From a bacterium (lineage in GTDB: Bacteria; Electryoneota; Electryoneia; Electryoneales; Electryoneaceae): 64,000 bases of DNA. How positions within the stretch are numbered: the stretch's first letter is position 1; each line of letters opens with the position of its first letter. The notes beneath the pieces are model-generated. The model was given only the letters and a program-made list of their open reading frames with translations, searched no databases and was not told the origin of the DNA. Location of the stretch: contig CAXXKJ010000002.1 of the NCBI GenBank assembly GCA_963675295.2, positions 3,424,001 to 3,488,000 of the forward strand. The letters run 5' to 3'. Below, piece after piece: positions 2 through 60,214 of the stretch. The position numbers and the translations under genes were made by a program.

Positions 2-2998
2 GACGGCGAGGTGTTCGGTCCGGACGGGATGCGTCCCACGGAATGGGTCCTGCGCGCACCGATTGAGGTTCACGACCGCACCCTCGGCCACGTTGAAGTC
101 TTCTACACCCGTGAGCTGCCGAAAGAAGACAACGGTCCCTTCCTCAAGGAAGAAGCCAAGCTGCTGGAAACCATCGCCGACCGTGTCGGGCACTTCATCC
201 TGCATAAGCACCTGCGCAAGGTGATTGAGGGCTGGGACACTGCGCGCAAGGACCTGAAGCGGCAGGGCGAATGGCGGGTGATCGTCGATCTGTTGCGCCG
301 CACCGACCAGGAGCTGTTCCTCGTCGTCGCTCGCAAGATGATGAATCACCTCTGCTGGAAGGGTGTCGTCGAGGCGGACGATATCCTCGCGCAACTGGGC
401 TCAACGGATCGCCGTCTCGGTGAGACGGAAGACGCCAACCGTCCGCTGCAACGCAGGAAAGCGTACGACATCCTCGCGTTGAGCGAAGAGATCTTCAACG
501 TCGCGGAAGCGAACCTCTGGGACAACGATATCCTCGAGCTGGTGCAGAAGTACATGCAGGAGGATCGCGCCAGCTTCCTGATTCGCACGTTGATCAATCT
601 CGACAGCACGCTCACCGACATCTCCGACGCCATCCGCCGCTTCCACCACCTGTCCCTCGACACGATGGACCTCGCTGAATCGACGCGCAAGGGAGTCAAG
701 GTGGCGATGGTGCGCCGGTTCCTCAGCGATCAGCTCGAGTTCATTCAGATCGCGAAGGACTATGTCGATATCAAAGACTTCATGCAGCTCATTCCGCGGC
801 TGATCCATCCGATCAACAGCCACGGAAAGCTGGGCGGCAAAAGCGCGGGCATGTTCCTGGCCTGGAAGATGCTGCGCAAGGCGATCGACAAGCACCCGGA
901 ATTCTCAGAAGTGCGGCTGCCGAAGACGTGGTACATCACCTCGGACGGCCTCCACAGCTTCCTCCACTTCAACAACCTCGAGGAAGTCACCGAGCAGAAG
1001 TACAAGGACATCGAGCAGGTACGGCAGGAACACCCGCACATCGTCCACCTGTTCAAGTCGTCGCATTTCCCGCCGGAAATCATTCCCGGCCTCTCGATGG
1101 CGTTGGACGATTTCGGCGAAAGCCCGATTATCGTCCGCAGTTCCAGCTTGCTCGAAGACCGGCTCGGATCGGCATTTTCCGGCAAGTATACCAGCTTGTT
1201 CCTCGCCAACCGTGGCAGCAAATCCGAACGGCTGGAAGCGTTGATGGACGCCATCGCGGAGGTGTATTCCTCCACCTTCGCCAGCGATCCGATCGAGTAT
1301 CGCGCCGAACGCGGATTGCTCGACTTTCACGAAGAGATGGGCATCCTGATCCAGGAGGTGGTCGGCACGCGTGTCGGGAAGTACTACCTCCCCGCCTACG
1401 CCGGCGTCGCCTTCAGCAACAACGAGTTCCGCTGGTCGCCACGGATCAAGCGTGAAGATGGTCTCGTCCGGCTCGTGCCCGGGCTCGGCACTCGCGCGGT
1501 CGACCGTCTCAGTGACGACTACTGCATCCTCGCCGCGCCGGGCCAGCCGGATCTGCGGGTGAATGTGACCGTTGAGGAGAGTATCCGTTATTCGCCACGG
1601 TACCTCGACGCCATTGACCTCGACAGCAACACGTTCGTCACCCTGCCGATCCAGGAGTTCCTCAAGCAGCACGGGGACAGCTTCCCGCGTGTGCAGGAGT
1701 TTGTTTCCGAGATCGAACACAATCACCTGCGTCAGCCGAACCTCTTTGACCTCGACTTCGAGGAAAAGGATTACGCGGTCACCTTCGAGGGACTGATCCA
1801 CCAGTCGAAGTTCATCAAGCACATCAAGGCGGTGCTCGCAACCCTTGAGGAATCGTTGCACGGGCCCGTGGACATCGAGTTTGCACATGATGGCAAGTTC
1901 TTCTACCTGCTGCAATGCCGTCCGCAAAGTCACGGCGATGACACCCGTCCCGCCGCGATCCCGAAGGACATTCCGGAGAGTGCGATCCTGTTCTCAGCGA
2001 ACCGCTATGTCTCCAACGGTGCCGTGCCAGAGATCAAGTACGTCGTTTATGTCGATCCGGAAGCATACGCCGAGCTTGAGGACAAGAAGGAGATGCTGCG
2101 TGTCGCGCGGGCGGTGGGCCAGTTGAACAAACAGCTGCCGAAACGACGGTTCATCCTGATGGGGCCGGGCCGTTGGGGCAGCCGTGGCGACATTAAGCTC
2201 GGTGTCAGCGTTACCTACAGCGAGATCAACAACACGGCGATGTTGATCGAGGTCGCGCGTCAGAAAGGCGGTTATGTACCCGACCTGTCCTTCGGCACGC
2301 ACTTCTTCCAGGATCTGGTCGAGGCGTCCATCCGTTATCTCCCGTTGTATCCGGACGATTCCGACGTCCTGTTCAACGAACGCATCCTGACCCAATCCTA
2401 CAACATGTTGGGCGAATTGCTGCCTGAGTACGGGAATCTGGACAAGGTGATCAAAGTGATCGACGTGCCGCGCAGCCTCAGTGGCAAGGTTCTCAAGGTG
2501 TACATGAACGCCGATCTCGACCAGGCGGTCGCGATACTGACTCAATCCACCCAGGAAGCTGATCCGGAGACCAAACGAACGGGCATCACGGCATTCGATG
2601 TGCCCGAACGCAGTTCCGACGACCACTGGCGCTGGCGTTACCGGATGGCGGAACGGATCGCGGGTCGGATCGAGGCGGAGAAGTATGGCGTCAAGGCAAT
2701 GTTTGTCTTTGGCAGCACGAAAAACGGCACCGCCAAGGCCGGTAGCGATCTCGACCTGCTGATTCACGTCGCAGATGATGCCTCGAACCGTGACGAGCTG
2801 ATGATCTGGTTCAACGGCTGGTCGGCGGCATTGGCCGAGATCAACTATCTGCGCACAGGCTATCGCAGTGAGAATTTGCTTGACGTACATTTCGTCACCG
2901 ACGAGGACATCAAGAACCGCACCAGCTACGCGGTCAAGATTGGCGCGGTGACCGACGCCGCGAAGGAAATCCCGCTCGGGGGGATCGATCCGGCATAA
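2..2998 (+). CDS. PEP/pyruvate-binding (PPDK_N-like) domain protein with N-terminal GAF-like segment and C-terminal nucleotidyltransferase domain; 5'-truncated by window edge
   Basis: Frame is open from base 2. Motifs GKLGGKSAG, IIVRSSSLLED..FSGKY, PGLGTRAVDR, VDIEFA..LLQCRP and SFGTHFFQDL; C-terminal MFVFGSTKNG..SDLDLL is a pol-beta/MNT-type signature. Confidence 0.8.
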   Translation, partial: DGEVFGPDGMRPTEWVLRAPIEVHDRTLGHVEVFYTRELPKEDNGPFLKEEAKLLETIADRVGHFILHKHLRKVIEGWDTARKDLKRQGEWRVIVDLLRRTDQELFLVVARKMMNHLCWKGVVEADDILAQLGSTDRRLGETEDANRPLQRRKAYDILALSEEIFNVAEANLWDNDILELVQKYMQEDRASFLIRTLINLDSTLTDISDAIRRFHHLSLDTMDLAESTRKGVKVAMVRRFLSDQLEFIQIAKDYVDIKDFMQLIPRLIHPINSHGKLGGKSAGMFLAWKMLRKAIDKHPEFSEVRLPKTWYITSDGLHSFLHFNNLEEVTEQKYKDIEQVRQEHPHIVHLFKSSHFPPEIIPGLSMALDDFGESPIIVRSSSLLEDRLGSAFSGKYTSLFLANRGSKSERLEALMDAIAEVYSSTFASDPIEYRAERGLLDFHEEMGILIQEVVGTRVGKYYLPAYAGVAFSNNEFRWSPRIKREDGLVRLVPGLGTRAVDRLSDDYCILAAPGQPDLRVNVTVEESIRYSPRYLDAIDLDSNTFVTLPIQEFLKQHGDSFPRVQEFVSEIEHNHLRQPNLFDLDFEEKDYAVTFEGLIHQSKFIKHIKAVLATLEESLHGPVDIEFAHDGKFFYLLQCRPQSHGDDTRPAAIPKDIPESAILFSANRYVSNGAVPEIKYVVYVDPEAYAELEDKKEMLRVARAVGQLNKQLPKRRFILMGPGRWGSRGDIKLGVSVTYSEINNTAMLIEVARQKGGYVPDLSFGTHFFQDLVEASIRYLPLYPDDSDVLFNERILTQSYNMLGELLPEYGNLDKVIKVIDVPRSLSGKVLKVYMNADLDQAVAILTQSTQEADPETKRTGITAFDVPERSSDDHWRWRYRMAERIAGRIEAEKYGVKAMFVFGSTKNGTAKAGSDLDLLIHVADDASNRDELMIWFNGWSAALAEINYLRTGYRSENLLDVHFVTDEDIKNRTSYAVKIGAVTDAAKEIPLGGIDPA

Positions 2999-3034
2999 TC
3001 GTTACTGGAATCCTCTGACAAACAAGAGAGTACG

Positions 3035-3433
3035 ATGACTGAAAATCTGGTTTCTATGCTGCTCGCTTGGGCGTTTGTTACGTTTTCCCTTGGCTTCCAG
3101 TGGATCATGTACAAGCATGGAGATCGCTCGTACTGGAAAGGGAACAAGCGGAATCCCCTGTTCGCCATCGAGGGCTGGGCGGCCCTGTTCAGCGCAGCGG
3201 TGATCTACGCACTGCTTCGCACGTGGCTGTTGATCAATCCCGCAGCTTCAGTTCACGACATCTCGTTCGTTGTTTGCCTGTTTGTCTGCCAGATCGTCTT
3301 CACCGGCAGCCTCTACCTGGCCTGGAAGCTGTTTCCTGATTTTCCGTCTTTCTTCGGCTGGCGTGATTCCCGCGAGACGAATGAAACGTCCGAACCGAAC
3401 GAAGACGCGCAGCAGGCAGTCCCCACGAAGTAA
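3035..3433 (+). CDS. Small membrane protein, about 3 TM segments, function unknown
   Basis: Hydrophobic segments; fills the gap between two co-directional genes. Confidence 0.55.
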   Translation: MTENLVSMLLAWAFVTFSLGFQWIMYKHGDRSYWKGNKRNPLFAIEGWAALFSAAVIYALLRTWLLINPAASVHDISFVVCLFVCQIVFTGSLYLAWKLFPDFPSFFGWRDSRETNETSEPNEDAQQAVPTK

Positions 3434-3448
3434 CCGGAGTCCGCGATC

Positions 3449-4852
3449 GTGTCGAAATCTGTCCAGTCCCGTCTCAGCCAGTTGCCGAAGGTGGATATCG
3501 TTCTCCAGCACCGGGAGCTGGGTGCCTGGTCACGGTCTCCGTTGACCGCCGGCAAAGTCCGTGAGCTGATCGACGAAACCCGGCAGATGGTGCTGGAAGA
3601 TGAGAACACGATCATCCCGGACGCCGCCGACCTCGCCCGGATGGCTCATGACGAACTGAACGATCAGTTTCGCTCCCCCCTGCGCCGGGTGTTGAACGGA
3701 ACCGGCATTATTGTCCACACCAACCTCGGCCGGGCGCCGATCAGCGAGGCTGCGATTGAGGCGATGAACGCCGTCGCACGCGGCTACAGCACGCTCGAAT
3801 ACGATCTCGACCGGGGACGGCGCGGTTCACGACATAACCTCGTGCGTGAACACCTGCTCGCGTTGACTGGTGCGGAGGACGCGCTGGTCGCCAACAACAA
3901 CGCCTCCGCCCTGTTATTGGCTTTGACCACGCTCGCGAAACGGAAAGAGGTGCTGGTCAGCCGTGGTCAGCTGGTCGAAATTGGCGGATCGTTCCGGATT
4001 CCGGACATCTGCCGCGTCTCCGGCGCGAAACTGGTCGAGGTAGGAACCACCAACCGTACTAGACTAGCCGACTACGAACGCGCGATCTCGGCAAAGACCG
4101 GCGTGCTCTTACGGGTGCATCCCTCAAACTTCCGTGTCGTTGGCTTCACTGAGGAAGTGCAGCTCGACGATCTCGTCAAACTGGGTCAAAAACACAACCT
4201 CCCGGTTGTCGACGATCTCGGCAGCGGCGCATTGGCGAATGTGTCCTCAGTGACTCGTCTCCCGCACGAATCACTGGTGTCGGAGAGTGTGGGCGCTGGC
4301 GCGGATGTCGTCACCTTCAGCGGCGACAAGCTGCTCGGCGGTCCGCAGGCGGGGCTCGCTGTCGGGAATTCGGCGTATATCGGCAAGATGCGCAAGCATC
4401 CGTTAATGCGGGCCGTGCGTCCGGACAAACTGACCTTCGCTGCGTTGACCGCAACGTTGCAGCAGTACCTGACGTCGGATCACATCGAGCAGTTACCGAT
4501 CTGGCGCATGTTCAGCCTCGGTGTGATCGAGCTCGAGGCGTGCCTCGGGCCTGTGTACAAGGCGATTAAAGCTGCGGCGAACAACGCCGGACTTGAGCTG
4601 GAGATCGGCCAGTCGGTGTCCTATGCCGGTGGCGGCAGCCTGCCGGAAGAGGAAATGCCCAGCCGTGCGTTGATCTTCTCCGGGACTCAGCGGCGCTTGA
4701 AGGATTTTCAGGACGGTCTCAGGCTCGCGGATGTCCCCCTGATCGGGTATCTTAAGGACAAACGGTTCCATCTCGACGCCCGAACCCTGTCCATTGAATC
4801 CCCGGATGAGATCACGACGCTGCTGATCGCCGGACTGGAGGAGTTGTCATGA
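3449..4852 (+). CDS. selA: L-seryl-tRNA(Sec) selenium transferase
   Basis: LRRVLNGTGIIVHTNLGRAP, SRGQLVEIGGSFRIPD, EVGTTNRT, and FSGDKLLGGPQAG (PLP lysine). Confidence 0.97.
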   Translation: MSKSVQSRLSQLPKVDIVLQHRELGAWSRSPLTAGKVRELIDETRQMVLEDENTIIPDAADLARMAHDELNDQFRSPLRRVLNGTGIIVHTNLGRAPISEAAIEAMNAVARGYSTLEYDLDRGRRGSRHNLVREHLLALTGAEDALVANNNASALLLALTTLAKRKEVLVSRGQLVEIGGSFRIPDICRVSGAKLVEVGTTNRTRLADYERAISAKTGVLLRVHPSNFRVVGFTEEVQLDDLVKLGQKHNLPVVDDLGSGALANVSSVTRLPHESLVSESVGAGADVVTFSGDKLLGGPQAGLAVGNSAYIGKMRKHPLMRAVRPDKLTFAALTATLQQYLTSDHIEQLPIWRMFSLGVIELEACLGPVYKAIKAAANNAGLELEIGQSVSYAGGGSLPEEEMPSRALIFSGTQRRLKDFQDGLRLADVPLIGYLKDKRFHLDARTLSIESPDEITTLLIAGLEELS

Positions 4853-6219
4853 AGCGGACCCTTGTCATTCTGCTGCTGTTACTGCTGCCATTGGCTTTCG
4901 GCCTGGCGCAGTTGGACAGCACCGCAACCGACACAGCTTCCAGCGAACCGGAGCGTATTTCTGCGAAACGTGGCCTGGTGCACCTGATGTTCATCGAGGG
5001 CGCGATTCACGCCGTCGTCAGCCAGTCCATTGAACGGGCGATTGAGCGGGCGGACGAGGCCGGCGCGCGGGCCTTGATCATCGAGCTCGACACTCCGGGC
5101 GGCCTGCTGGAATCGACCCACGACATCACCAAGACCATCCTCAACAGCCCGGTTCCGATTGTGGTGTATGTTGCCCCCAATGGTGCACGCGCCGGGTCGG
5201 CGGGCGTATTTATCACGATGGCGGCCCATGTCGCCGCGATGGCTCCCTCGACGAACATCGGCGCGGCAACGCCGGTTGGGATGGGCGACTCGCCGACGGC
5301 GACGGATACGACCGAAGCCGCACAATCGGACGCCGAGGCGATGCGCCGCAAGGTGACCAACGATGCGATCGCCAATGTCCGCGCGATGGCGGAAAAGCAC
5401 GCCCGCAACGCCGATTGGGCGGAGAAGGCGGTGCGGGAAGCGGCCTCGATCACCGCGACGGAAGCGCTCGAGTTGAACGTGATCGAGTTTATCGCAGAGG
5501 ATGTGGACGATCTGCTCGAGCAAATGGACGGCATGATCGTCGAGGTTCCGGACGGCGACATCATCCTTGAAACGAAGAACGCTCGTGTCGACGAATTCGA
5601 ACCGACCTGGCGTGAGGATTTCCTCAATACGCTTGCCAATCCGAATCTGGCGTACATCCTGATGCTGATCGGGTTTTACGGTCTCATCTTCGAACTCTAC
5701 AATCCGGGCGCGATCATCCCGGGCGTGGTCGGCGTGATCAGCCTGATCCTCGCGTTCTTTGCGCTGCAAACGTTGCCGATCAGTTGGGCAGGGCTGCTGC
5801 TGATTGTACTTGCGATAGTGCTCTTTGTGCTGGAGGTGTACGTGACCAGTTTCGGTTTTCTCACATTTGGCGGTACGGTCTCACTGGTGATCGGATCGGT
5901 GCTGCTGATTGACACCGATGTACCGGACATGCGGGTATCGTGGTCGGTGATCGTCCCCACCGTGCTGGTCACCATTGCGTTCTTCACGTTTGCGCTGACG
6001 ATGGCGATCAAGGCGCAGAAGAACAAGGTCGCCACCGGCAAGGAAGGCCTGGCCGGCGAGCACGGGCACGCGGTCGGCGACATCGCCCCCCGTGGCAAGG
6101 TCAAGATTGGCGGCGAATACTGGAAGGCGGAAGCAGTTGGCGACGAGATCAAGGACGGTGACGAGATCGAGGTGATTTCCGAGGATCGTCTCGTGGTGAA
6201 GGTGAAACGAGTGGACTGA
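4849..6219 (+). CDS. nfeD: NfeD-family membrane-bound ClpP-class serine protease (long form)
   Basis: Signal peptide, IELDTPGGL, ARAGSAG, APSTNIGAA, TM cluster, and C-terminal OB-fold (GKVKIGGEYWKA). ATGA overlap with selA. Confidence 0.92.
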   Translation: MKRTLVILLLLLLPLAFGLAQLDSTATDTASSEPERISAKRGLVHLMFIEGAIHAVVSQSIERAIERADEAGARALIIELDTPGGLLESTHDITKTILNSPVPIVVYVAPNGARAGSAGVFITMAAHVAAMAPSTNIGAATPVGMGDSPTATDTTEAAQSDAEAMRRKVTNDAIANVRAMAEKHARNADWAEKAVREAASITATEALELNVIEFIAEDVDDLLEQMDGMIVEVPDGDIILETKNARVDEFEPTWREDFLNTLANPNLAYILMLIGFYGLIFELYNPGAIIPGVVGVISLILAFFALQTLPISWAGLLLIVLAIVLFVLEVYVTSFGFLTFGGTVSLVIGSVLLIDTDVPDMRVSWSVIVPTVLVTIAFFTFALTMAIKAQKNKVATGKEGLAGEHGHAVGDIAPRGKVKIGGEYWKAEAVGDEIKDGDEIEVISEDRLVVKVKRVD

Positions 6220-10477: not shown

Positions 10478-11062
10478 GTGGAAGAGACCGGGCTGGTGGT
10501 GTCACCGAATCAGATCGAAAGCCGTTTGTTCATGATTCGCGGCGAACGTGTCATCATTGACCGTGACCTCGCGGAACTGTACGGCGTTGAAACTCGGCGG
10601 CTGAACGAGCAGGTCCGCCGCAACGAACAACGCTTCCCCGCCGACTTTGTCTTCAAGCTGAATGCCGAGGAAAAAGCCGCGGTGCTTGAAGCCGCTGAAC
10701 ACCTGCAGCCATTAAAGTATTCGCGTGCGCTACCGTTGGCGTACACGGAACGTGGAGCGTTGATGGCGGCAACGGTGCTCGATTCGGAATCGGCTGAAGA
10801 TGCAATGGTGATGATGATCCGCTCGTTCGTGCAGATGCGGGATCAAGCCCTGTCCACCAACCAGCTCACCACCGGGCTGCAGTTTCTCAATCAACGCATG
10901 GAACGCACCGAGAAACAGCAGATCCTGCTGCTCACGATGATCAAGGATATCCTCTCGCCTCCGAAGGAAGTGCCCGTGCCGAAGAAACGCCGGATCGGAT
11001 TTGGAGTCGAAGATGAACCGGAAGAGGTCGCGGAAGATACGAATACGCAGGAAACCGAATAA
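10478..11062 (+). CDS. ORF6N (KilA-N-like) DNA-binding domain protein
   Basis: IRGERVIIDRDLAELYGVETRRLNEQVRRNEQRFPADF, and a C-terminal KRRIGF tail. Confidence 0.9.
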   Translation: MEETGLVVSPNQIESRLFMIRGERVIIDRDLAELYGVETRRLNEQVRRNEQRFPADFVFKLNAEEKAAVLEAAEHLQPLKYSRALPLAYTERGALMAATVLDSESAEDAMVMMIRSFVQMRDQALSTNQLTTGLQFLNQRMERTEKQQILLLTMIKDILSPPKEVPVPKKRRIGFGVEDEPEEVAEDTNTQETE

Positions 11063-11575: not shown

Positions 11576-11654
11576 CAGCGGCCTCTCTCAATTCTGAATC
11601 TCACCGGTTAATATACGACAAACCCTCCTTCATCGAAGGCGGGTATGTGTTTTT

Positions 11655-11693: not shown

Positions 11694-13160
11694 TCACACC
11701 TGATGATGCTTGAAGTAGTCTTCGAGTTCCGGCAGGCCGCCCTGGAAGACGAGGTAGCCGTCGAACGGTTCCCGCTCAGTGATCTCGCCGTTGACCGGGG
11801 TGGTCATCATCCGTCTCACTTCGGCGGGATCCTCTGTCTGGCCCAGCACCCAGCCGAGCTTCACGTATGCCACTTCCGGCAGCATGTTCGCCAACGGTGT
11901 AACACCGATTTCCATGATGTCGCGGCCGGTATCGTACACGTACATCTGGACATAGCCCCAGAGAGTCTGCACGGTCATGAAGATGTGCACACCGGCTTCC
12001 ACCGCCCGTCGCAATGCCGGGAACAGCGGCCGGTTGACATGGCCGAGGCCGGTACCGGCGATGACAATGCCCTTGTAGCCGGCGTCCACCATCGCATCCA
12101 CGATATCCGCCTGCATGTTCGGGTAGTACCACAGCAACGTGACCTTTTCCTCGAAGGAAGTGTTCAGCACCGGCTTGCGGTTCATGTCACGGTGGATGTA
12201 CGCGTTCTCCTCCTTGATCGGCACGAATCCGTCCTGACTCACACGTGCAATCGGGGTGTCGCTCAGCGAACGGAAGGTGCTGCGGTAGGACGAGTGCATC
12301 TTGCGCACCCGTGTCCCGCGATGCAGCAGGCCGTAATTATCCGAGGTCGGGCCATACATGCAGACCATCACCTCGCCCAAATCGCCCTCAGCGGCGGTTT
12401 TCACTGCACGCAGCAGGTTGAAGGCGGCGTCCGAGGACGGCCGGTCGGACGAGCGCTGGCTGCCGACAACCACCACCGGGCACGGCAGGTTCTGCACCAT
12501 GAACGTCAATGCCGCAGCGGTGTAGTGCATGGTGTCGGTGCCGTGTCCGACGACGACGCCATTCACGTTGGAGTTGTTGATCTCATCGACAACCGCTTCT
12601 GCAACTTTCTTCCAGTGCATCGGGCCGATGTTCTCGCTGAACTCGCCGAAGATCTTCTTCGTGTTCATGTTCGCGATGTCGGCCAGTTCCGGCACCGCGC
12701 CGTACAGTTCGCCCGGGCTGAACGCCGGAATCACCGCGCCGGTGCGGTAATCGAGACGGCTGGCGATGGTGCCGCCGGTGCCGAGCAGGATGACATTCGG
12801 TTTTGCCGGATCCTTGGGAAATTCCTTCTCCGGGATCTTGTAATTGGCTTTGCGATAGCCGAGCACCTCGATGTGCTTGATCGACTCGGACTTGATGCCA
12901 ACGTTGTACCCGTTGTACGTCAGCTTGATCACCAGGTGTTTGTCATCGGCGGTTTCGCTGCGTGGCAGCAGAATGCCGACAAAGTCGCCCTGATCAGTGG
13001 TCGCGTTGACTTCGCACCACACCCGCGCGCCGGTCGTTTCCAGCACCGCACGGCTGTAGCCACGGTAGCCCTTGTAATCTTCTGCCGGATCCAGCTCGGG
13101 GAGAGTGACACCCTCGACCACCGAACCGGTCGCCTTGATCTCGAACGTTGTTTCGCTCAT
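11694..13160 (-). CDS. gatD: Glu-tRNA(Gln) amidotransferase subunit D (archaeal-type GatD)
   Basis: GatD-specific N-terminal domain (GILLPRSETADDKHLVIKL..GYNVGI) plus asparaginase core TGGTIASRLDYRTGAV, HGTDTM, GSQRSSDRPSSDA, RGTRVRKMHSS.R, GTGLGHV, MLPEVAYVKLGWVLG. Confidence 0.9.
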   Translation of the reverse strand: MSETTFEIKATGSVVEGVTLPELDPAEDYKGYRGYSRAVLETTGARVWCEVNATTDQGDFVGILLPRSETADDKHLVIKLTYNGYNVGIKSESIKHIEVLGYRKANYKIPEKEFPKDPAKPNVILLGTGGTIASRLDYRTGAVIPAFSPGELYGAVPELADIANMNTKKIFGEFSENIGPMHWKKVAEAVVDEINNSNVNGVVVGHGTDTMHYTAAALTFMVQNLPCPVVVVGSQRSSDRPSSDAAFNLLRAVKTAAEGDLGEVMVCMYGPTSDNYGLLHRGTRVRKMHSSYRSTFRSLSDTPIARVSQDGFVPIKEENAYIHRDMNRKPVLNTSFEEKVTLLWYYPNMQADIVDAMVDAGYKGIVIAGTGLGHVNRPLFPALRRAVEAGVHIFMTVQTLWGYVQMYVYDTGRDIMEIGVTPLANMLPEVAYVKLGWVLGQTEDPAEVRRMMTTPVNGEITEREPFDGYLVFQGGLPELEDYFKHHQV

Positions 13161-13285
13161 CGTCGTCTCAATGGGATTTTGGTCGCTGAGGCGGTAACGT
13201 ACGCGCCCGCGTGCAAACTCGCAAACGCCTCCAGAATCCGAGTTGCGCGTCTGGGTACGGCTGGGTACATTTGTGTCTCGTTAAC

Positions 13286-13357
<72 letters not shown>

Positions 13358-13365
13358 CTCGTATG

Positions 13366-51961: not shown

Positions 51962-52987
51962 CTCCCCCTCCCCCGTGTTTACGACGAGCCGATGGATGGC
52001 CGCCTCCGCCACCTTGTTTGCGGCTGTCGGAATCAAACTAAACTGCGGAGCTATGGGGTGCAACGGGGATTCGGGGATGAGTTCGGGCATGTCGTAACCC
52101 GGGCGCGGGGCTTGGGGCGCCGGGCTCAGGGGTTGATGGTGCTTCGGTGTAGGATGGTCCCGGACTGAAGTACGTGGGCGTGGGTCTACCGGGGACACTT
52201 TGGGGACAAAGTGTCCCCGGTTCACGTTGGATTCGAGTGTGGACGGTCCGCGTCCGCAAGCGGACACGGGCACATCCTGGTTGTGATTGAAGCGGACGAA
52301 ACCGGCGTGCGCGGAATAATAGCCGTTCTTCTCCCGGAAAATCAGATCCGGGTAGATCAGGCGGCAGGGGTTGGGCTTGGTCGTGCGTTTCAGCCCACGG
52401 TTCCAGCCGCCGCCTGGCCCGTCCGGACCCTGGCCGGGTTTGTAACGCTTGCGTGGTTTGGGTTTCGGGCGTTTGAGGCGACCGTATTCGTCGAGCAGCT
52501 CCGGTGGGACGGGCTCGCCGGAGGAATCGTAGACGGTGGGCGGAGTTCGGAGGACCGGGCCGCCGTTGATGGCGATGGGGAGTGAACCGGGCTCGGGGCT
52601 TGGGGTTCTGGGCTCGGGGGGTGATTCAACCGGCGGATGATCTGCGGTAGCAGAGCTCCCGCGGGCATTTTGATTATGCAGCTCCTGCGGTTCGGGTGGC
52701 GGTATGTCGTGATCCCCGGGTTGACACCCGAAGCTAGTTAGATGCCACCCCTTCGGGGTGGTCGTGCCGTCGAAAGTTGTCGTCTCGACTGGACGGACTT
52801 GCGCGACGCCATGAAGAATTAGCATCTTCCACAGCGAAGCGACGATTCCCTTGACAGCACGGACAAGACGTACGATCCCCCGTTTCCCGATGGTGATGAG
52901 GGAAATACAGGTGTGGATGGCTGGTTGTCGATGCGTCGTGGGCTGCATGGCGGGATGGCTGTGGTGCGCGTGATGGGATCCGCTCAC
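51962..52987 (-). CDS. Orphan Pro/Lys-rich coding segment, in frame with the downstream lipoprotein and carrying embedded repeats
   Basis: 342 stop-free codons; coding-like third positions at 52280-52580; strong promoter directly upstream. Confidence 0.4.
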
Positions 52988-52989
52988 GA

Positions 52990-53034
52990 TGAACGGATGT
53001 TCAGAATTATACTTCCTTTTGTGTTGGTTGTCAA
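52990..53034 (-). promoter_or_regulatory. Consensus sigma70 promoter with GAAC-N4-GTTC operator over the start site
   Basis: Minus strand reads TTGACA-17 bp-TATAAT, then tcTGAACatccGTTCA. Confidence 0.8.
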
Positions 53035-53119
53035 GGCGTTGCGCTAGCTTCGAGAGGATTTTTTAGCAGATCCAGTACATCAATTATTTGCCTACTGAAA
53101 CGACTTCCATGGAGTTCAC

Positions 53120-54511
53120 ATGTTCAGAACGCTACTAGTTACACTACTAATTACCTCCTTCCAAGTTACATACGCAGTAGATTCATGGTTTGAACACACA
53201 ATAATTGATAATATTTCTGCTGAGGGCTTATACACTTCTGATATTAACTCAGACGGCTTTATTGATATTATTACAGGATCTGATTCACTTATTGTTTGTA
53301 TAAATAACGGTGATAACACATTTAATACACATTATTTTAGCATTAATGAAGGCAATATTTACTTAATCACAAGTTTAGCAACTGCTGATTTAGATTCAGA
53401 CGGCGATTTAGACATTATTGTCGTTTCTGAGTATATAGAAGACACACTTATTTGGATGGAAAACACTGATAATGGATTTCTAAAACATAGTGTTGATAAC
53501 GATATGCAATATTATTATGTAACAGTTTATGATATTGATAACGATTATGACATGGATATTATTACGTTTGGTTCACAGAGTCATATTTGGTTTAATGACA
53601 ATGCAACATTTACTTCGTCATTAGTAGGTAACAATTTGGGTATTGCTTATGATGCCGATATCGATGATTATGACAATGATAGTGATCTAGATATAGTCGT
53701 CTTAACATTTGACAACATCATTATGTTTTCTAATACCGGAAACAATATCTACAATCAAGGTATTATTGATACTGCTGAACCTTTTCAAGGATTCTGGTCC
53801 ATAGAGTCAGGTAGAATTAATGATGATTTGAAGCCAGATATTGTCGTTTCATCTAATAGTGAGATAAAATGGTATGATGTATATCAAGATACAATATACT
53901 CAAATAACATTTATCAACTAAATAACTATGATGACATTAGCTTATCTATTATTGACATGGACTACGATGATGATAGTGATATTATATGCGCGTTTAAACT
54001 GTCAAATAAACTACTATGGTTAGAAAATACCAATGACAATTTATGGAGTACACATCTAATAGGGTTAAATGAGACTACACAAAATATATTTGGTTCATCT
54101 GTTAAAAGCGAACAGTTTGACGTTGATCCAGATGTGGAAGTTGTACTAGCACTTTCATCAAAAATAGTCTGGTATGATTACAATGATTATCCATTGATAA
54201 TTACTCCAATAGTAACAAATATACCACCTGCTGGTGGTTCTATTCTCTATTCTTTGTCTTTAGTTAATCCAACATTGACAGCTCAATTCGGAATAAACTA
54301 TTGGACATCTATTACACTTCCGAACGGTAACACTCTTAGCCCTATAGTGACTGCTACTTTTAATATAGGTCGATATAGAACAATTATTATTGATCAACTA
54401 TATCAAAATGTGCCCAGTTTTGCGCCAAGCGGAACATACGTTCATACTTCAAATGTTGGATACTATCCAGAAAGCCTCTTGAATGCAAGCTTTGAATTCA
54501 CAAAAAACTGA
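53120..54511 (+). CDS. Secreted FG-GAP/VCBS-repeat protein with unnamed C-terminal domain; very AT-rich gene
   Basis: Signal peptide; repeated D[IL]DxDGDxDI[IV] and W.EN motifs; ends IPPAGG..SFEFTKN. Confidence 0.88.
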   Translation: MFRTLLVTLLITSFQVTYAVDSWFEHTIIDNISAEGLYTSDINSDGFIDIITGSDSLIVCINNGDNTFNTHYFSINEGNIYLITSLATADLDSDGDLDIIVVSEYIEDTLIWMENTDNGFLKHSVDNDMQYYYVTVYDIDNDYDMDIITFGSQSHIWFNDNATFTSSLVGNNLGIAYDADIDDYDNDSDLDIVVLTFDNIIMFSNTGNNIYNQGIIDTAEPFQGFWSIESGRINDDLKPDIVVSSNSEIKWYDVYQDTIYSNNIYQLNNYDDISLSIIDMDYDDDSDIICAFKLSNKLLWLENTNDNLWSTHLIGLNETTQNIFGSSVKSEQFDVDPDVEVVLALSSKIVWYDYNDYPLIITPIVTNIPPAGGSILYSLSLVNPTLTAQFGINYWTSITLPNGNTLSPIVTATFNIGRYRTIIIDQLYQNVPSFAPSGTYVHTSNVGYYPESLLNASFEFTKN

Positions 54512-57720: not shown

Positions 57721-58935
57721 CTATCGCTTCGCTTCCAGTTCCGTCTGTGTCTTGCGGATGATTTCATCAACTTCAGCCTGCGTCTGAAGCACACCCCATG
57801 TTTGATCTCGCTCGCCTACGGGGACTTGATCGATGAGTCCCGGCTCAATATCACCATCAGGTTGTAATTCATCTACTTTTATATATCGGATAGCATCCGC
57901 ATATACAAAACCATCACTTTGGTTAATTATAGTTGTTCCCTGGACCCGCCCGTTTGTTATAGGCCAAGTACCTATGTAATCCCACATATTATAACCTCTA
58001 TTGGTGTGAAAAGAATTACTTTCATAAATTCCATAGGCGTGATAGGTTATAAATTGAAATCGCGGGGAAATAGAATTGTAGCCGGTATTGATATTCCACA
58101 CGTACATCTCATACAAACCTGGTTCAACAAGCTGATCCACACGCCAACCCGCGCGTCGCTCACCATATCCACGCGTATGATATAGCAAGGAACCACCTTT
58201 CGCGTCAGGGTGCTCAAAAGTCTGCCAATTGCCACTAATGATCACAAACTGCGGATCACTGTTGTCGATTTCGTAGACTGCTGAGAAAGGATGGACAAGC
58301 ATACGCCAAGCTGAGGTATCTGATGCCTGTGGGTCATATTCCCCGTTTGTAAACCCATCATCCATAAGAAACATGATGAAATCTACTGGTCCATGATAGA
58401 AAGGTTCTTCATACACGACTGCTCCATTCTCAATGAGTTCTCCATCTATTATCGGGGCGTATTCATGATCGCCAATAAATGTTAAGTATATATTGTCATC
58501 TTCAGGATCATCATACATGATGACGCAAAACCATTCTTCCCCAAACCGTACATTTGTCGGCGGATCAGCGATCAGCACAGGCGGGTCATTCACCTCGATC
58601 AGGTCAAGTTCGAAGGTCGACGAGTTGGACAGCTCACCGCCCGCGAGCACCATGAACTCGCCGGTCACATTCACGTCGTTGTTGAGATCCGGTATGAACG
58701 TAACCGTGCAGACACCCTCCACCACGGATATGTTCTGCACCGTTCCACCGACGACGTTGTACACATGGCAGTCGGTGGCAAGGTCGCCGTCATCATCGGT
58801 GTAGTTGAGGATCACTTCACCTTCGGTGTCTTCCCATGTCTGACCGAACGAAGGCGTGGCTACGGGTGGTGTGGCGAATGTGGTGAAGGCGAGTGCAAAC
58901 AGGCCGATGAGTGTGAGGCTGGCGATCCACTTCAT
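57721..58935 (-). CDS. Secreted protein: cadherin-like Ig domains plus golvesin-like carbohydrate-binding domain (paralog A)
   Basis: Start set at MKWIASL; EVNDPP; DNSDPQF..GNW..VYADAIRY. Confidence 0.8.
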   Translation of the reverse strand: MKWIASLTLIGLFALAFTTFATPPVATPSFGQTWEDTEGEVILNYTDDDGDLATDCHVYNVVGGTVQNISVVEGVCTVTFIPDLNNDVNVTGEFMVLAGGELSNSSTFELDLIEVNDPPVLIADPPTNVRFGEEWFCVIMYDDPEDDNIYLTFIGDHEYAPIIDGELIENGAVVYEEPFYHGPVDFIMFLMDDGFTNGEYDPQASDTSAWRMLVHPFSAVYEIDNSDPQFVIISGNWQTFEHPDAKGGSLLYHTRGYGERRAGWRVDQLVEPGLYEMYVWNINTGYNSISPRFQFITYHAYGIYESNSFHTNRGYNMWDYIGTWPITNGRVQGTTIINQSDGFVYADAIRYIKVDELQPDGDIEPGLIDQVPVGERDQTWGVLQTQAEVDEIIRKTQTELEAKR

Positions 58936-58969
58936 GGTGATGTCCCCCTGGACGGTTGTCCTTGAATGG

Positions 58970-58999
58970 AGTGTAGCTTTGACTATCCGCCGTTTGCAA
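58970..58999 (-). promoter_or_regulatory. Putative sigma70 promoter, duplicated at 60249-60278
   Basis: TTGCAA-18 bp-TACACT conserved in front of both paralogs. Confidence 0.6.
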
Positions 59000-59050
59000 G
59001 AAATCGTGATACCAGTTTGACAGCAACCCAAGCCACCGGAGCCTTGATTG

Positions 59051-60214
59051 TCACCTTGTATCCGTATCCGCCAGTGAATCAGGGTCGCAGTCTTCACAGG
59101 GGATGTCATCATACCAGGACGGGTCGTCAGCTGTCCCGTCTACGGGAGGCCATTCATTCACTTTGATATACCTGACTGCATCGGCATACACAATACCGCT
59201 CGGCCTGGCACGCAAGGTCACGCCTTGTGGAATGGTGTTATCAATGGGATATCTGCCTATAATCACCCATTGACCGTGTGGCAGCGGTTCAGAGTGAAGA
59301 CAATCTCCGTGAATACCAAGTGAATAATGGTGCTGATAACAAAATAACCGTGCCATCAGCTGATCATGACCAGTAGGGAATTGCCACGCATACATATCAT
59401 ACATGCCAGACTCCACGACTTGGTCAACACGCCAGCCAACCCTTGCCTGATCACCAGGCTGCGTATACATAAGCGAGCCGCCAATAGCCTCAGGTAAGTC
59501 ATACGTATTCCACCAGCCATTCATGACCATAAACTGCGGGTCAGAGTTATCAAATTCATAGTGGGTAATGTACGGCTGGATAATAACGGTAAACACCTGC
59601 TCTGCTGATTGCGGGTCAGGCTGGCCATTAGTCCAGCCATTGTCAGTGAATGTTATGGTGATTGCTACAGGTCCACGAAAGTTTTGAGACCATGTAAGCT
59701 GGTCTCCTTGATGAAAAACACCCTCAGCTTCAGGACCGAAGTAGTTATCACTAATAATCGTGTAGGTTAAGTCATCACCTTCAACATCCTCCACAACGGG
59801 ATGATAGACATAACTTGTACCATATTGGCCAGTCAATGGCGGCGCAGAAATGATAACCGGCGGATCATTCACCTCGATCAAGTCGAGTTCAAAGGTGGAG
59901 ATGTTGGACACTTCGCCGCCCGCCGTCACGGTGAAATTACCGGTCACATCTACATCGTTGTTCAGGTCGGGGGAGATGGTCACCGTGCACACACCACCCA
60001 CCACGGACGTTGATACCACCGTTCCGCCGACCACGTTGAACACGTCGCAATCAGTGGCAAGGTCGCCGTCGTCGTCCGTGTAGTTGAGGACCACTTCGCC
60101 TTCGGTGTCTTCCCACGTCTGACCGAACGAAGGTGTGGCTACGGGTGGTGTGGCGAATGTGGTGAAGGTAAGTGCAAGCAGGCCGAAGAGCGTGAGGCTG
60201 GCGATCCACTTCAT
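59051..60214 (-). CDS. Secreted protein, paralog B of 57721-58935
   Basis: Near-identical first ~120 aa; same domain order; divergent remainder. Confidence 0.82.
   Translation of the reverse strand: MKWIASLTLFGLLALTFTTFATPPVATPSFGQTWEDTEGEVVLNYTDDDGDLATDCDVFNVVGGTVVSTSVVGGVCTVTISPDLNNDVDVTGNFTVTAGGEVSNISTFELDLIEVNDPPVIISAPPLTGQYGTSYVYHPVVEDVEGDDLTYTIISDNYFGPEAEGVFHQGDQLTWSQNFRGPVAITITFTDNGWTNGQPDPQSAEQVFTVIIQPYITHYEFDNSDPQFMVMNGWWNTYDLPEAIGGSLMYTQPGDQARVGWRVDQVVESGMYDMYAWQFPTGHDQLMARLFCYQHHYSLGIHGDCLHSEPLPHGQWVIIGRYPIDNTIPQGVTLRARPSGIVYADAVRYIKVNEWPPVDGTADDPSWYDDIPCEDCDPDSLADTDTR

Follow-up and report, generated by a model that had tools for sequence, protein, structure and literature searches.

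Among the described tRNA-dependent amidotransferases, GatCAB is, in Thermus thermophilus, Deinococcus radiodurans and Bdellovibrio bacteriovorus, a route to asparagine. It coexists in all three of these bacteria with the direct synthetases GlnRS and AsnRS (PMC4206432). GatDE, the amidotransferase that turns Glu-tRNA(Gln) into Gln-tRNA(Gln), is stated to be exclusive to archaea in passages of PMC8007984, PMC9499178 and PMC2811023, where this distribution is also used for reasoning on the last common ancestor and on archaea never having adopted GlnRS. Its GatD subunit works with a Thr nucleophile and a Thr-Lys-Asp triad, the GatE subunit of Methanothermobacter thermautotrophicus has His15, Glu157 and Glu184 as essential catalytic residues, and the archaeal enzyme requires the A1-U72 pair in tRNA-Gln (all in passages of PMC2330236). 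In this article, I will discuss a gatD gene on a 64,000-nucleotide stretch of bacterial DNA (hereafter the window) from a member of the phylum Electryoneota (family Electryoneaceae; GenBank assembly GCA_963675295.2, contig CAXXKJ010000002.1), which a model that saw only the letters (the original prediction) had singled out as an archaeal-type GatD in a bacterial chromosome. The prediction had started from GatDE as an archaea-specific enzyme, and that premise does not survive, since the window gene is one member of a large clade of bacterial GatDE and not the oddity of one lineage; across the phylum of the host, moreover, GatDE and the asparagine synthetase gene asnA trade places.

That the window gene is a true gatD is virtually certain. 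The protein possesses the diagnostic N-terminal domain that had been read from the letters, which Pfam recognizes as GatD_N (Table 1), and the three motifs named with it, SRLDYRTG at residues 134-141, GSQRSSDRPSSD at residues 233-244 and RKMHSSYR at residues 286-293. A comparison of GatD and asparaginase profiles, suggested at the same time, comes out on the GatD side: the NCBIfam models TIGR02153 (gatD_arch) and NF003217 score 510.1 bits against a cut-off of 324 and 507.6 bits against a cut-off of 310, whereas the Escherichia coli-type asparaginase equivalogs stay below theirs (NF006998 for AnsA, 140 against 376; NF008304, 127 against 506). Similarly, the nearest solved structures are 1zq1_A (2.6e-121) and 2d6f_A (1.3e-112), with true asparaginases appearing only at about 1e-39 or weaker, and residues T131, T208, D209 and K287, which correspond to the described Thr nucleophile and Thr-Lys-Asp triad, are each shared by at least 97% of the sequences in a 57-row alignment of bacterial and archaeal GatD. 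A plain type I L-asparaginase resembling AnsA is therefore hardly conceivable and was rejected; AnsA does share the catalytic fold and residues, and the asparaginase subfamily model TIGR00519 does pass its cut-off on the window protein (377.6 against 260.5), but it does so because GatD contains the asparaginase fold, while AnsA has neither a GatD_N domain nor a GatE partner, a matching gatE exists in this genome, and trees place the protein inside the GatD radiation and asparaginase-like proteins outside it, not clustered with it.

The partner gene is missing from the window, as had been noted, and the single match in the genome lies outside it, 1.3 Mb away on the same contig (G000:C2:2131068-2132942), where one full-length gatE scores 407.7 bits with TIGR00134 (cut-off 319.55). 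Its product aligns along residues 2-612 of the 619-residue chain 2d6f_C (4.7e-90), carries GatB_N and YqeY-like domains, remains below the cut-off of the GatB model (104.7 against 314.8 bits), and has H22, E165 and E192 aligned to the essential His15, Glu157 and Glu184, all three conserved. With so canonical a GatE encoded in the genome, the new GatD partner that the original prediction had considered is unneeded, and the refuting case that it had named, a missing gatE next to complete GlnRS/GatCAB, does not apply. Both genes are kept under strong purifying selection: relative to the closest relatives, the ratio of nonsynonymous to synonymous substitution rates (dN/dS) is 0.062 for gatD (dS 0.44; relative L007) and 0.075 for gatE (dS 0.40), and with more distant relatives, for which dS is saturated, it does not reach 0.19. 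Compared with archaeal GatDE (2D6F with tRNA-Gln; 1ZQ1), the likeness covers both subunits and all domains, including the cradle, the inserted-domain region and the YqeY-like tail of GatE, as well as the catalytic residues of each subunit; the differences are the bacterial host with its GlnRS, bacterial-type GluRS and U1-A72 tRNA-Gln, in which GatDE is not the sole route to Gln-tRNA, the separate bacterial clade to which the window GatD belongs, the exclusion of asnA where GatDE is present, and the unlinked gatD and gatE genes. Judging by these sequence features, the two proteins would form a complex that is very probably a working bacterial GatDE amidotransferase.

The C-terminal tail of GatE takes two forms in an alignment of 67 bacterial tails (loci L011-L084 and the GatE of the host): a Methanothermobacter-like form (MGxxMxxLRGR...), to which the genome of the window belongs, and a form reading MGQLRxxAxGNxxLxxL, which occurs in Bacteroidales, Acidobacteriota, Cloacimonadota and further groups. 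In addition, a metagenome protein of 943 residues (P0002) has a GatE catalytic domain (24-304) fused to a complete GatD (476-935), with no match to the GatE tail domain. A gatE-gatD fusion was also considered at locus L017 and rejected, because the coordinates put the long open frame in a different frame from gatE.

Two sets of genomes show how far GatDE extends among bacteria, the first comprising 79 species genomes of the host's phylum, with presence counted over model cut-offs, and the second the best 80 loci of at least 547 relatives in a species-genome collection, at 61-95% identity; a good many of these genomes are metagenome bins that are incomplete, and fixed thresholds decide what is counted as absent. 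Within the phylum, GatD is present in 46 genomes, GatE in 43, GlnRS in 40, GatB in 40 and AsnRS in 69, and 14 of the 15 other genomes of the host's family have GatD, including all three congeners. The best 80 loci are all bacterial and come from Bacteroidales/Lentimicrobiaceae, Ignavibacteria (including Melioribacter roseus), Marinimicrobia, KSB1, Cloacimonadota, Zixibacteria, Krumholzibacteria, Acidobacteriota, Phycisphaerae, Lentisphaerae, Myxococcota and others. At 69 of them gatE sits immediately upstream of gatD on the same strand; five of the other 11 have too little upstream DNA to hold a gatE, and the two genes are apart in the four closest relatives of the window, as they are in the window itself. 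No conserved third gene was found beside gatE-gatD in the 80 loci, only lineage-specific clusters reaching at most 12 of the 80, antisense shadow open reading frames (ORFs) aside.

GatD trees were built with FastTree (150 rows) and as a quick IQ-TREE tree (59 rows, LG+C20, two asparaginase-like outgroups), and in both of them all bacterial GatD form one clade with the window protein inside it (support 100, Shimodaira-Hasegawa-like approximate likelihood ratio test). The sister group of this clade consists of three sequences (support 96), and a fourth branches off next (99), within the remaining GatD diversity. An organism name is attached to 6 of the 20 representative clusters examined, all archaeal (Sigynarchaeota in the sister group, Thermococcus, Bathyarchaeia, Nitrososphaerota, Desulfurococcaceae and Thermoplasmatota), the Sigynarchaeota bin being the only named member of the three sister sequences. 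The GatD tree, which is the only one considered on this point, fits a single old transfer from archaea to bacteria and subsequent spread within bacteria. A gene recently acquired by horizontal transfer, or archaeal contamination of the assembly, is what the archaea-exclusive family described in print might lead one to expect, and yet it has next to no chance and was rejected. The claim of the original prediction that the gene is host-like in composition and no newcomer holds, with a G+C content of 0.602 and a third-position G+C content (GC3) of 0.806 in gatD against 0.605 and 0.791 in the neighboring der gene (the contigs stand at 0.588 and 0.577), and the window GatD falls in a bacterial clade, 62-95% identical to the copies of other bacteria. 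Furthermore, the gene is flanked by the bacterial housekeeping genes der/engA and priA, occurs in nearly all genomes of the family, keeps a conserved tRNA-Gly neighbor (just upstream and on the opposite strand in three of the four closest loci, L008, L009 and L010), and stands on a contig of 4.54 Mb in a two-contig assembly of 4.81 Mb that is rated 92.8% complete.

What does the host do with such an enzyme? The original prediction also proposed that this lineage makes Gln-tRNA by an archaeal route, and here the gene inventory says otherwise. The genome encodes GlnRS (727 bits, cut-off 425.8) and a single bacterial-type GluRS (527 bits, no second copy) that has Arg at the position of Arg358 in Thermus GluRS, a discriminating-type marker, although one of a single residue; changing that Arg358 to Gln removes discrimination in the Thermus enzyme (a passage of PMC2978374). 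Both tRNA-Gln(CUG) and tRNA-Gln(UUG) begin with U1-A72 and not with the archaeal A1-U72, and tRNA-Glu begins with G1. Profile searches of the host genome returned no gatA match and no gatB over the cut-off, the gatB model matching only gatE. With GlnRS present and the discriminating-type Arg in the only GluRS, the host has no evident source of Glu-tRNA(Gln), and its inventory argues that amidation of Glu-tRNA(Gln) is at least not essential there.

A few observations on the tRNA genes of the host stand on their own. The last 28 bases of tRNA-Gln(CUG) (G000:C2:633828-633901) are repeated exactly at 651625-651652, 17.7 kb downstream, as is usual where an element has integrated into a tRNA gene, and ARAGORN reports three unusual tRNAs (G000:C2:4439111-4439194, C2:720395-720476 and C2:2658429-2658521), namely a tRNA-like gene whose anticodon has four bases (tttc), an odd tRNA-Ile(aat) of 82 bases in which the acceptor stem is mismatched, and a tRNA-Sec. 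The idea that one of two very different tRNA-Gln genes tracks GatDE found no support, given that relatives of tRNA-Gln(CUG), the only one searched, occur in 64 of the 79 phylum genomes, including genomes with GatCAB only.

The same question can be put to the relatives. Both gatD and gatE are present in 40 phylum genomes, of which 23 have GlnRS without GatB, 12 have GatB without GlnRS, three have both and two have neither, so that GlnRS is present in 26; one of the last two is a bin of 87% completeness, and the other contains a fragment of GlnRS. Outside the phylum, a GlnRS match (E<=1e-40) was found in all 24 GatD genomes, over the cut-off in 22, and in four of the five genomes of a second set, with GatB in 7 of the 24 and two of the five. 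The near-closed genome G082, the only one outside the phylum with neither GlnRS nor GatB, was considered as obtaining Gln-tRNA from GatDE only, and this was withdrawn, since it returned no GluRS match even at E<=0.001 and its negatives cannot be trusted. Among the genomes compared, GatDE is never clearly the sole route to Gln-tRNA. The sampled genomes with GatDE and GatB but no GlnRS (G041, G029, G057, G073 and G043) have a second GluRS copy, whose residue at the Arg358 position is Gly in G057 and G073, and each of five sampled genomes with GatB only has a second GluRS with Gly there. Such pairs of GluRS genes, Arg occupying this position in one and Gly in the other, were also seen in phylum genomes that rely on GatCAB and do not have GlnRS (L102, L104, L106, L108, L110, L114 and L117), and they recall GluRS1 and GluRS2 of Helicobacter. 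Two genomes appear to show the decay of one of two redundant systems, assembly errors being possible in both: G034 has in-frame TGA stops in the front part of gatE (L100, G034:C33:546500-550000) along with GatB and GlnRS, and G085 has gatB in three pieces with a TAG stop (C8:62105-63522) beside intact gatED and GlnRS.

It is in this setting that a purely canonical role has to be judged, with GatDE converting Glu-tRNA(Gln) to Gln-tRNA(Gln) beside GlnRS as a back-up, a corrector of mischarging or a route that spares free glutamine. I consider this unlikely for a host that combines GlnRS with a single GluRS bearing the discriminating-type Arg and carries U1-A72 tRNA-Gln in place of the pair read by archaeal GatDE, the more so as no reliable genome has GatDE as its only glutamine route and as the absence of asnA alongside GatDE would be left unexplained. 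The canonical role does draw on the best family matches of both proteins, which are the Glu-tRNA(Gln) equivalogs of GatD and GatE, on the complete domain architecture of both subunits, and on the 12 phylum genomes with GatDE and GatB but no GlnRS, in which the second GluRS of the sampled members could make Glu-tRNA(Gln).

The scarcity of asnA alongside GatDE is an unexpected pattern in the phylum. Counted by TIGR00669 at E<=1e-30, asnA occurs in 4 of the 49 phylum genomes with GatD or GatE and in 24 of the 30 without (a naive Fisher test gives p 7e-11, kin not being independent), and the host genome gave no match at this threshold. The same tendency is seen family by family, with asnA in 1/13 genomes with GatD/E versus 3/3 without, 0/6 versus 3/3, 0/3 versus 1/1, and 3/8 versus 11/16. 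In the class to which the window belongs, GatDE with GlnRS and no GatB, asnA is present in none of the 23 genomes, as opposed to all eight GlnRS-only genomes, and 11 of the 16 GatB-only genomes have it. AsnA, AsnB and GatB are all missing in 12 of the 49 genomes bearing GatD or GatE versus one of the 30 others, and AsnB-family matches need not be asparagine synthetases. Outside the phylum, asnA was found in 3 of the 27 GatD-bearing genomes. The genes can even occupy the same place: in the same-genus pair G075/G074, one pair of flanking genes (71% and 82% identity) adjoins asnA in G075 and gatE-gatD in G074, and in the pair G023/G022 the same gene (80% identity) follows asnA in G023 and gatE in G022. 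Using the AsnRS tree as a proxy for the species tree, seven independent pairs differ in GatD/E, and among these asnA differs in the opposite direction in a mean of 5.3 pairs, in the same direction in 0.0 and not at all in 1.6. Across the phylum, then, GatDE and AsnA behave as alternatives that replace one another.

Three of the four exceptions (G054, G057 and G071) carry a tight operon in which gatE and gatD enclose asnA. This gatE-asnA-gatD arrangement (L099 of G054, 1170-5735; L151 of G057; L152 of G071) is found in one family of the phylum, and the asnA copies in it share 72-85% identity with asnA genes that stand alone in relatives. Elsewhere, asnA stands beside a 162-residue ORF that consists of the asparaginase N-domain only (L149 of G048, 2232-2720; L150 of G049, 869-1357; L153 of G001, 1581-2069), the short gene in G001 lying between two pieces of asnA, and in G017 it stands beside a gene for an asparaginase-like protein of 501 residues (L154, 261-1766). 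These short ORFs were considered as remnants of gatD, which found no support, there being no BLAST match to GatD at 1e-5; a short asparaginase-fold protein might be a partner that supplies AsnA with ammonia.

Now considering all of this together, the best overall explanation appears to be a bacterial GatDE whose retained job is more likely the amidation of Asp-tRNA(Asn), with Glu-tRNA(Gln) perhaps as a second substrate, and I would give this explanation an even chance. Taken by itself, a part for GatDE in making Asn-tRNA, be it the only task or one of two, comes at or slightly short of evens. I lean toward Asp-tRNA(Asn) because the glutamine route is already covered, because GatDE and AsnA behave as alternatives, because some carriers are without another asparagine route, and because a reader of the first base pair cannot tell tRNA-Asn from tRNA-Gln, both being U1-A72 in bacteria, as they are in this host. 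In chemical terms, GatD would, by homology, hydrolyze Gln or Asn, the ammonia would pass by a tunnel from GatD to GatE, and GatE would phosphorylate the side-chain carboxyl of a mischarged aminoacyl-tRNA, for which a source is presumed, and then amidate it; with Asp-tRNA(Asn) as the substrate, the outcome would be tRNA-dependent synthesis of asparagine, comparable to what GatCAB does in Thermus and Deinococcus. The parallel with GatCAB retained beside GlnRS and AsnRS is that the direct synthetases are present in the host and a tRNA-dependent amidotransferase is retained all the same, that the host tRNA-Asn is U1-A72, and that the 12 relatives mentioned above have none of AsnA, AsnB and GatB. 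It differs in that the glutaminase subunit of GatDE is unrelated (an asparaginase fold versus the amidase GatA) and no GatC is involved, in that activity of GatDE on Asp-tRNA(Asn) is a supposition, and in that the host also has an AsnB-like gene. The bolder proposal, which I hold only tentatively and at somewhat less than even chances, is a role swap in which GatDE, acquired once from archaea, would be the Asp-tRNA(Asn) amidotransferase that replaces AsnA in a wide set of bacteria (phyla of the Fibrobacteres-Chlorobi-Bacteroidetes group, Acidobacteriota, Planctomycetota and others), with GlnRS or GatCAB serving glutamine, so that the archaeal division of labor would be reversed.

Several points weigh against amidation of Asp-tRNA(Asn). 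The host itself needs no tRNA-dependent asparagine route, having AsnRS (469.9 bits) and an AsnB-like gene (433.3 bits, Asn_synthase and GATase domains). Its single, bacterial-type AspRS has Leu and Asp at the positions of His31 and Gly82 of Pseudomonas aeruginosa AspRS, which I take to be the marker of a non-discriminating enzyme, and Leu at the His31 position is also found in the discriminating AspRS of E. coli and Thermus. The pairs U1-A72 in tRNA-Asn and G1-C72 in tRNA-Asp, both of which the host has, are common in bacteria, so they are only permissive for such a route. [quoted passage not shown] A few neighborhoods point to glutamine, with glnS-gatE-gatD adjacent in two of the 80 loci (L030 and L057) and tRNA-Glu upstream of gatE in three (L034, L061 and L081), which also speaks for the canonical role, and none of the 80 loci has asnA within 5 kb of gatD. 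AsnB is present in 17 of the 27 GatD-bearing genomes outside the phylum. The independent-pairs tests are consistent in direction but underpowered, with a median p of 0.0625 (range 0.031-0.375) on the AsnRS tree and of 0.125 for the six pairs of the FastTree version, and the incompleteness of so many bins bears on every absence counted.

The conjunction of GlnRS, AsnRS and an AsnB-like gene with discriminating-looking GluRS and AspRS markers, and yet strong purifying selection on both subunits, could also mean that GatDE has an undescribed job outside amide aminoacyl-tRNA synthesis, such as amidating a carrier or another acyl-tRNA, or the supply of ammonia by GatD in asparagine metabolism, in keeping with the repeated adjacency of asnA to asparaginase-fold genes (gatD in three genomes, the short ORFs of G048, G049 and G001, and the longer gene of G017). 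I regard this as improbable, given that GatE keeps the residues aligned to its three essential catalytic residues together with a YqeY-like tRNA-binding tail, and that the self-contained two-gene operon seen at 69 of the 80 loci fits unchanged tRNA-dependent chemistry.

The features of the locus are collected in Table 1. The divergent orientation of gatD and tRNA-Gly(CCC) was read correctly in the original prediction, 125 bp separating the tRNA gene from the start codon; a pattern scan of the region upstream of gatD found no sigma-70 consensus, and the promoter placed there is presumed. Terminator-like sites around gatD number four versus 2.3 expected, which makes the hairpin past the stop codon weak evidence of a terminator. 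Directly downstream of gatD are a HicB-like antitoxin gene (80 residues; PF15919; 11333-11575, minus strand) and, further on, a gene with an ORF6N domain (194 residues; 10478-11062, plus strand). Elsewhere in the window, positions 52001-54000 and 58001-60000 have G+C contents of 0.472 and 0.494 against a window average of 0.58 and are possibly foreign DNA.

Table 1. Coordinates of gatD, its domains and catalytic residues, and adjoining features, in window positions.
Feature	Position	Strand	Basis or remark
gatD coding sequence	11694..13160	-	ORF, ATG start, 488 amino acids
GatD_N domain (PF18195), residues 55-100	12861..12998	-	Pfam, 48.2 bits, cut-off 25.7
Asparaginase domain (PF00710), residues 122-310	12231..12797	-	Pfam, 191.7 bits
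Asparaginase_C domain (PF17763), residues 339-452	11805..12146	-	Pfam, 107.2 bits
Nucleophile Thr131	12768-12770	-	Inside Asparaginase domain
Thr208/Asp209	12534-12539	-	Inside Asparaginase domain
Lys287	12300-12302	-	Same Asparaginase domain stretch
Intergenic stretch separating the divergent gatD and tRNA-Gly, with the presumed promoter of gatD	13161..13285	.	Sequence read
tRNA-Gly(CCC), divergent neighbor, not part of the enzyme	13286..13358	+	ARAGORN
Weak terminator-like hairpin, 55 bp past the gatD stop	11624..11639	-	Pattern scan

The existence of bacterial GatD is already recorded in databases, annotation pipelines naming such proteins GatD in their cluster names, and no study of bacterial GatDE was found in the literature searched, whose coverage left out most subscription journals. 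What the comparison adds is that the same architecture occurs in another domain of life among other tRNA identity elements and partner enzymes, where the role of GatDE is non-essential or changed and has an unexpected tie to asnA. A large and old bacterial GatDE clade, under purifying selection and living beside GlnRS and U1-A72 tRNAs, changes the archaea-only picture of this enzyme. Bacterial GatDE thereby constitutes a natural experiment on the retargeting of an amidotransferase, and some of its carriers appear to have cultured relatives (Melioribacter roseus, Lentimicrobium). If the switch to Asp-tRNA(Asn) is true, it would be a new substrate specificity for the GatDE family, and it would also affect metabolic reconstructions, since genomes of this kind now look auxotrophic for asparagine or have a redundant glutamine pathway in their annotation.

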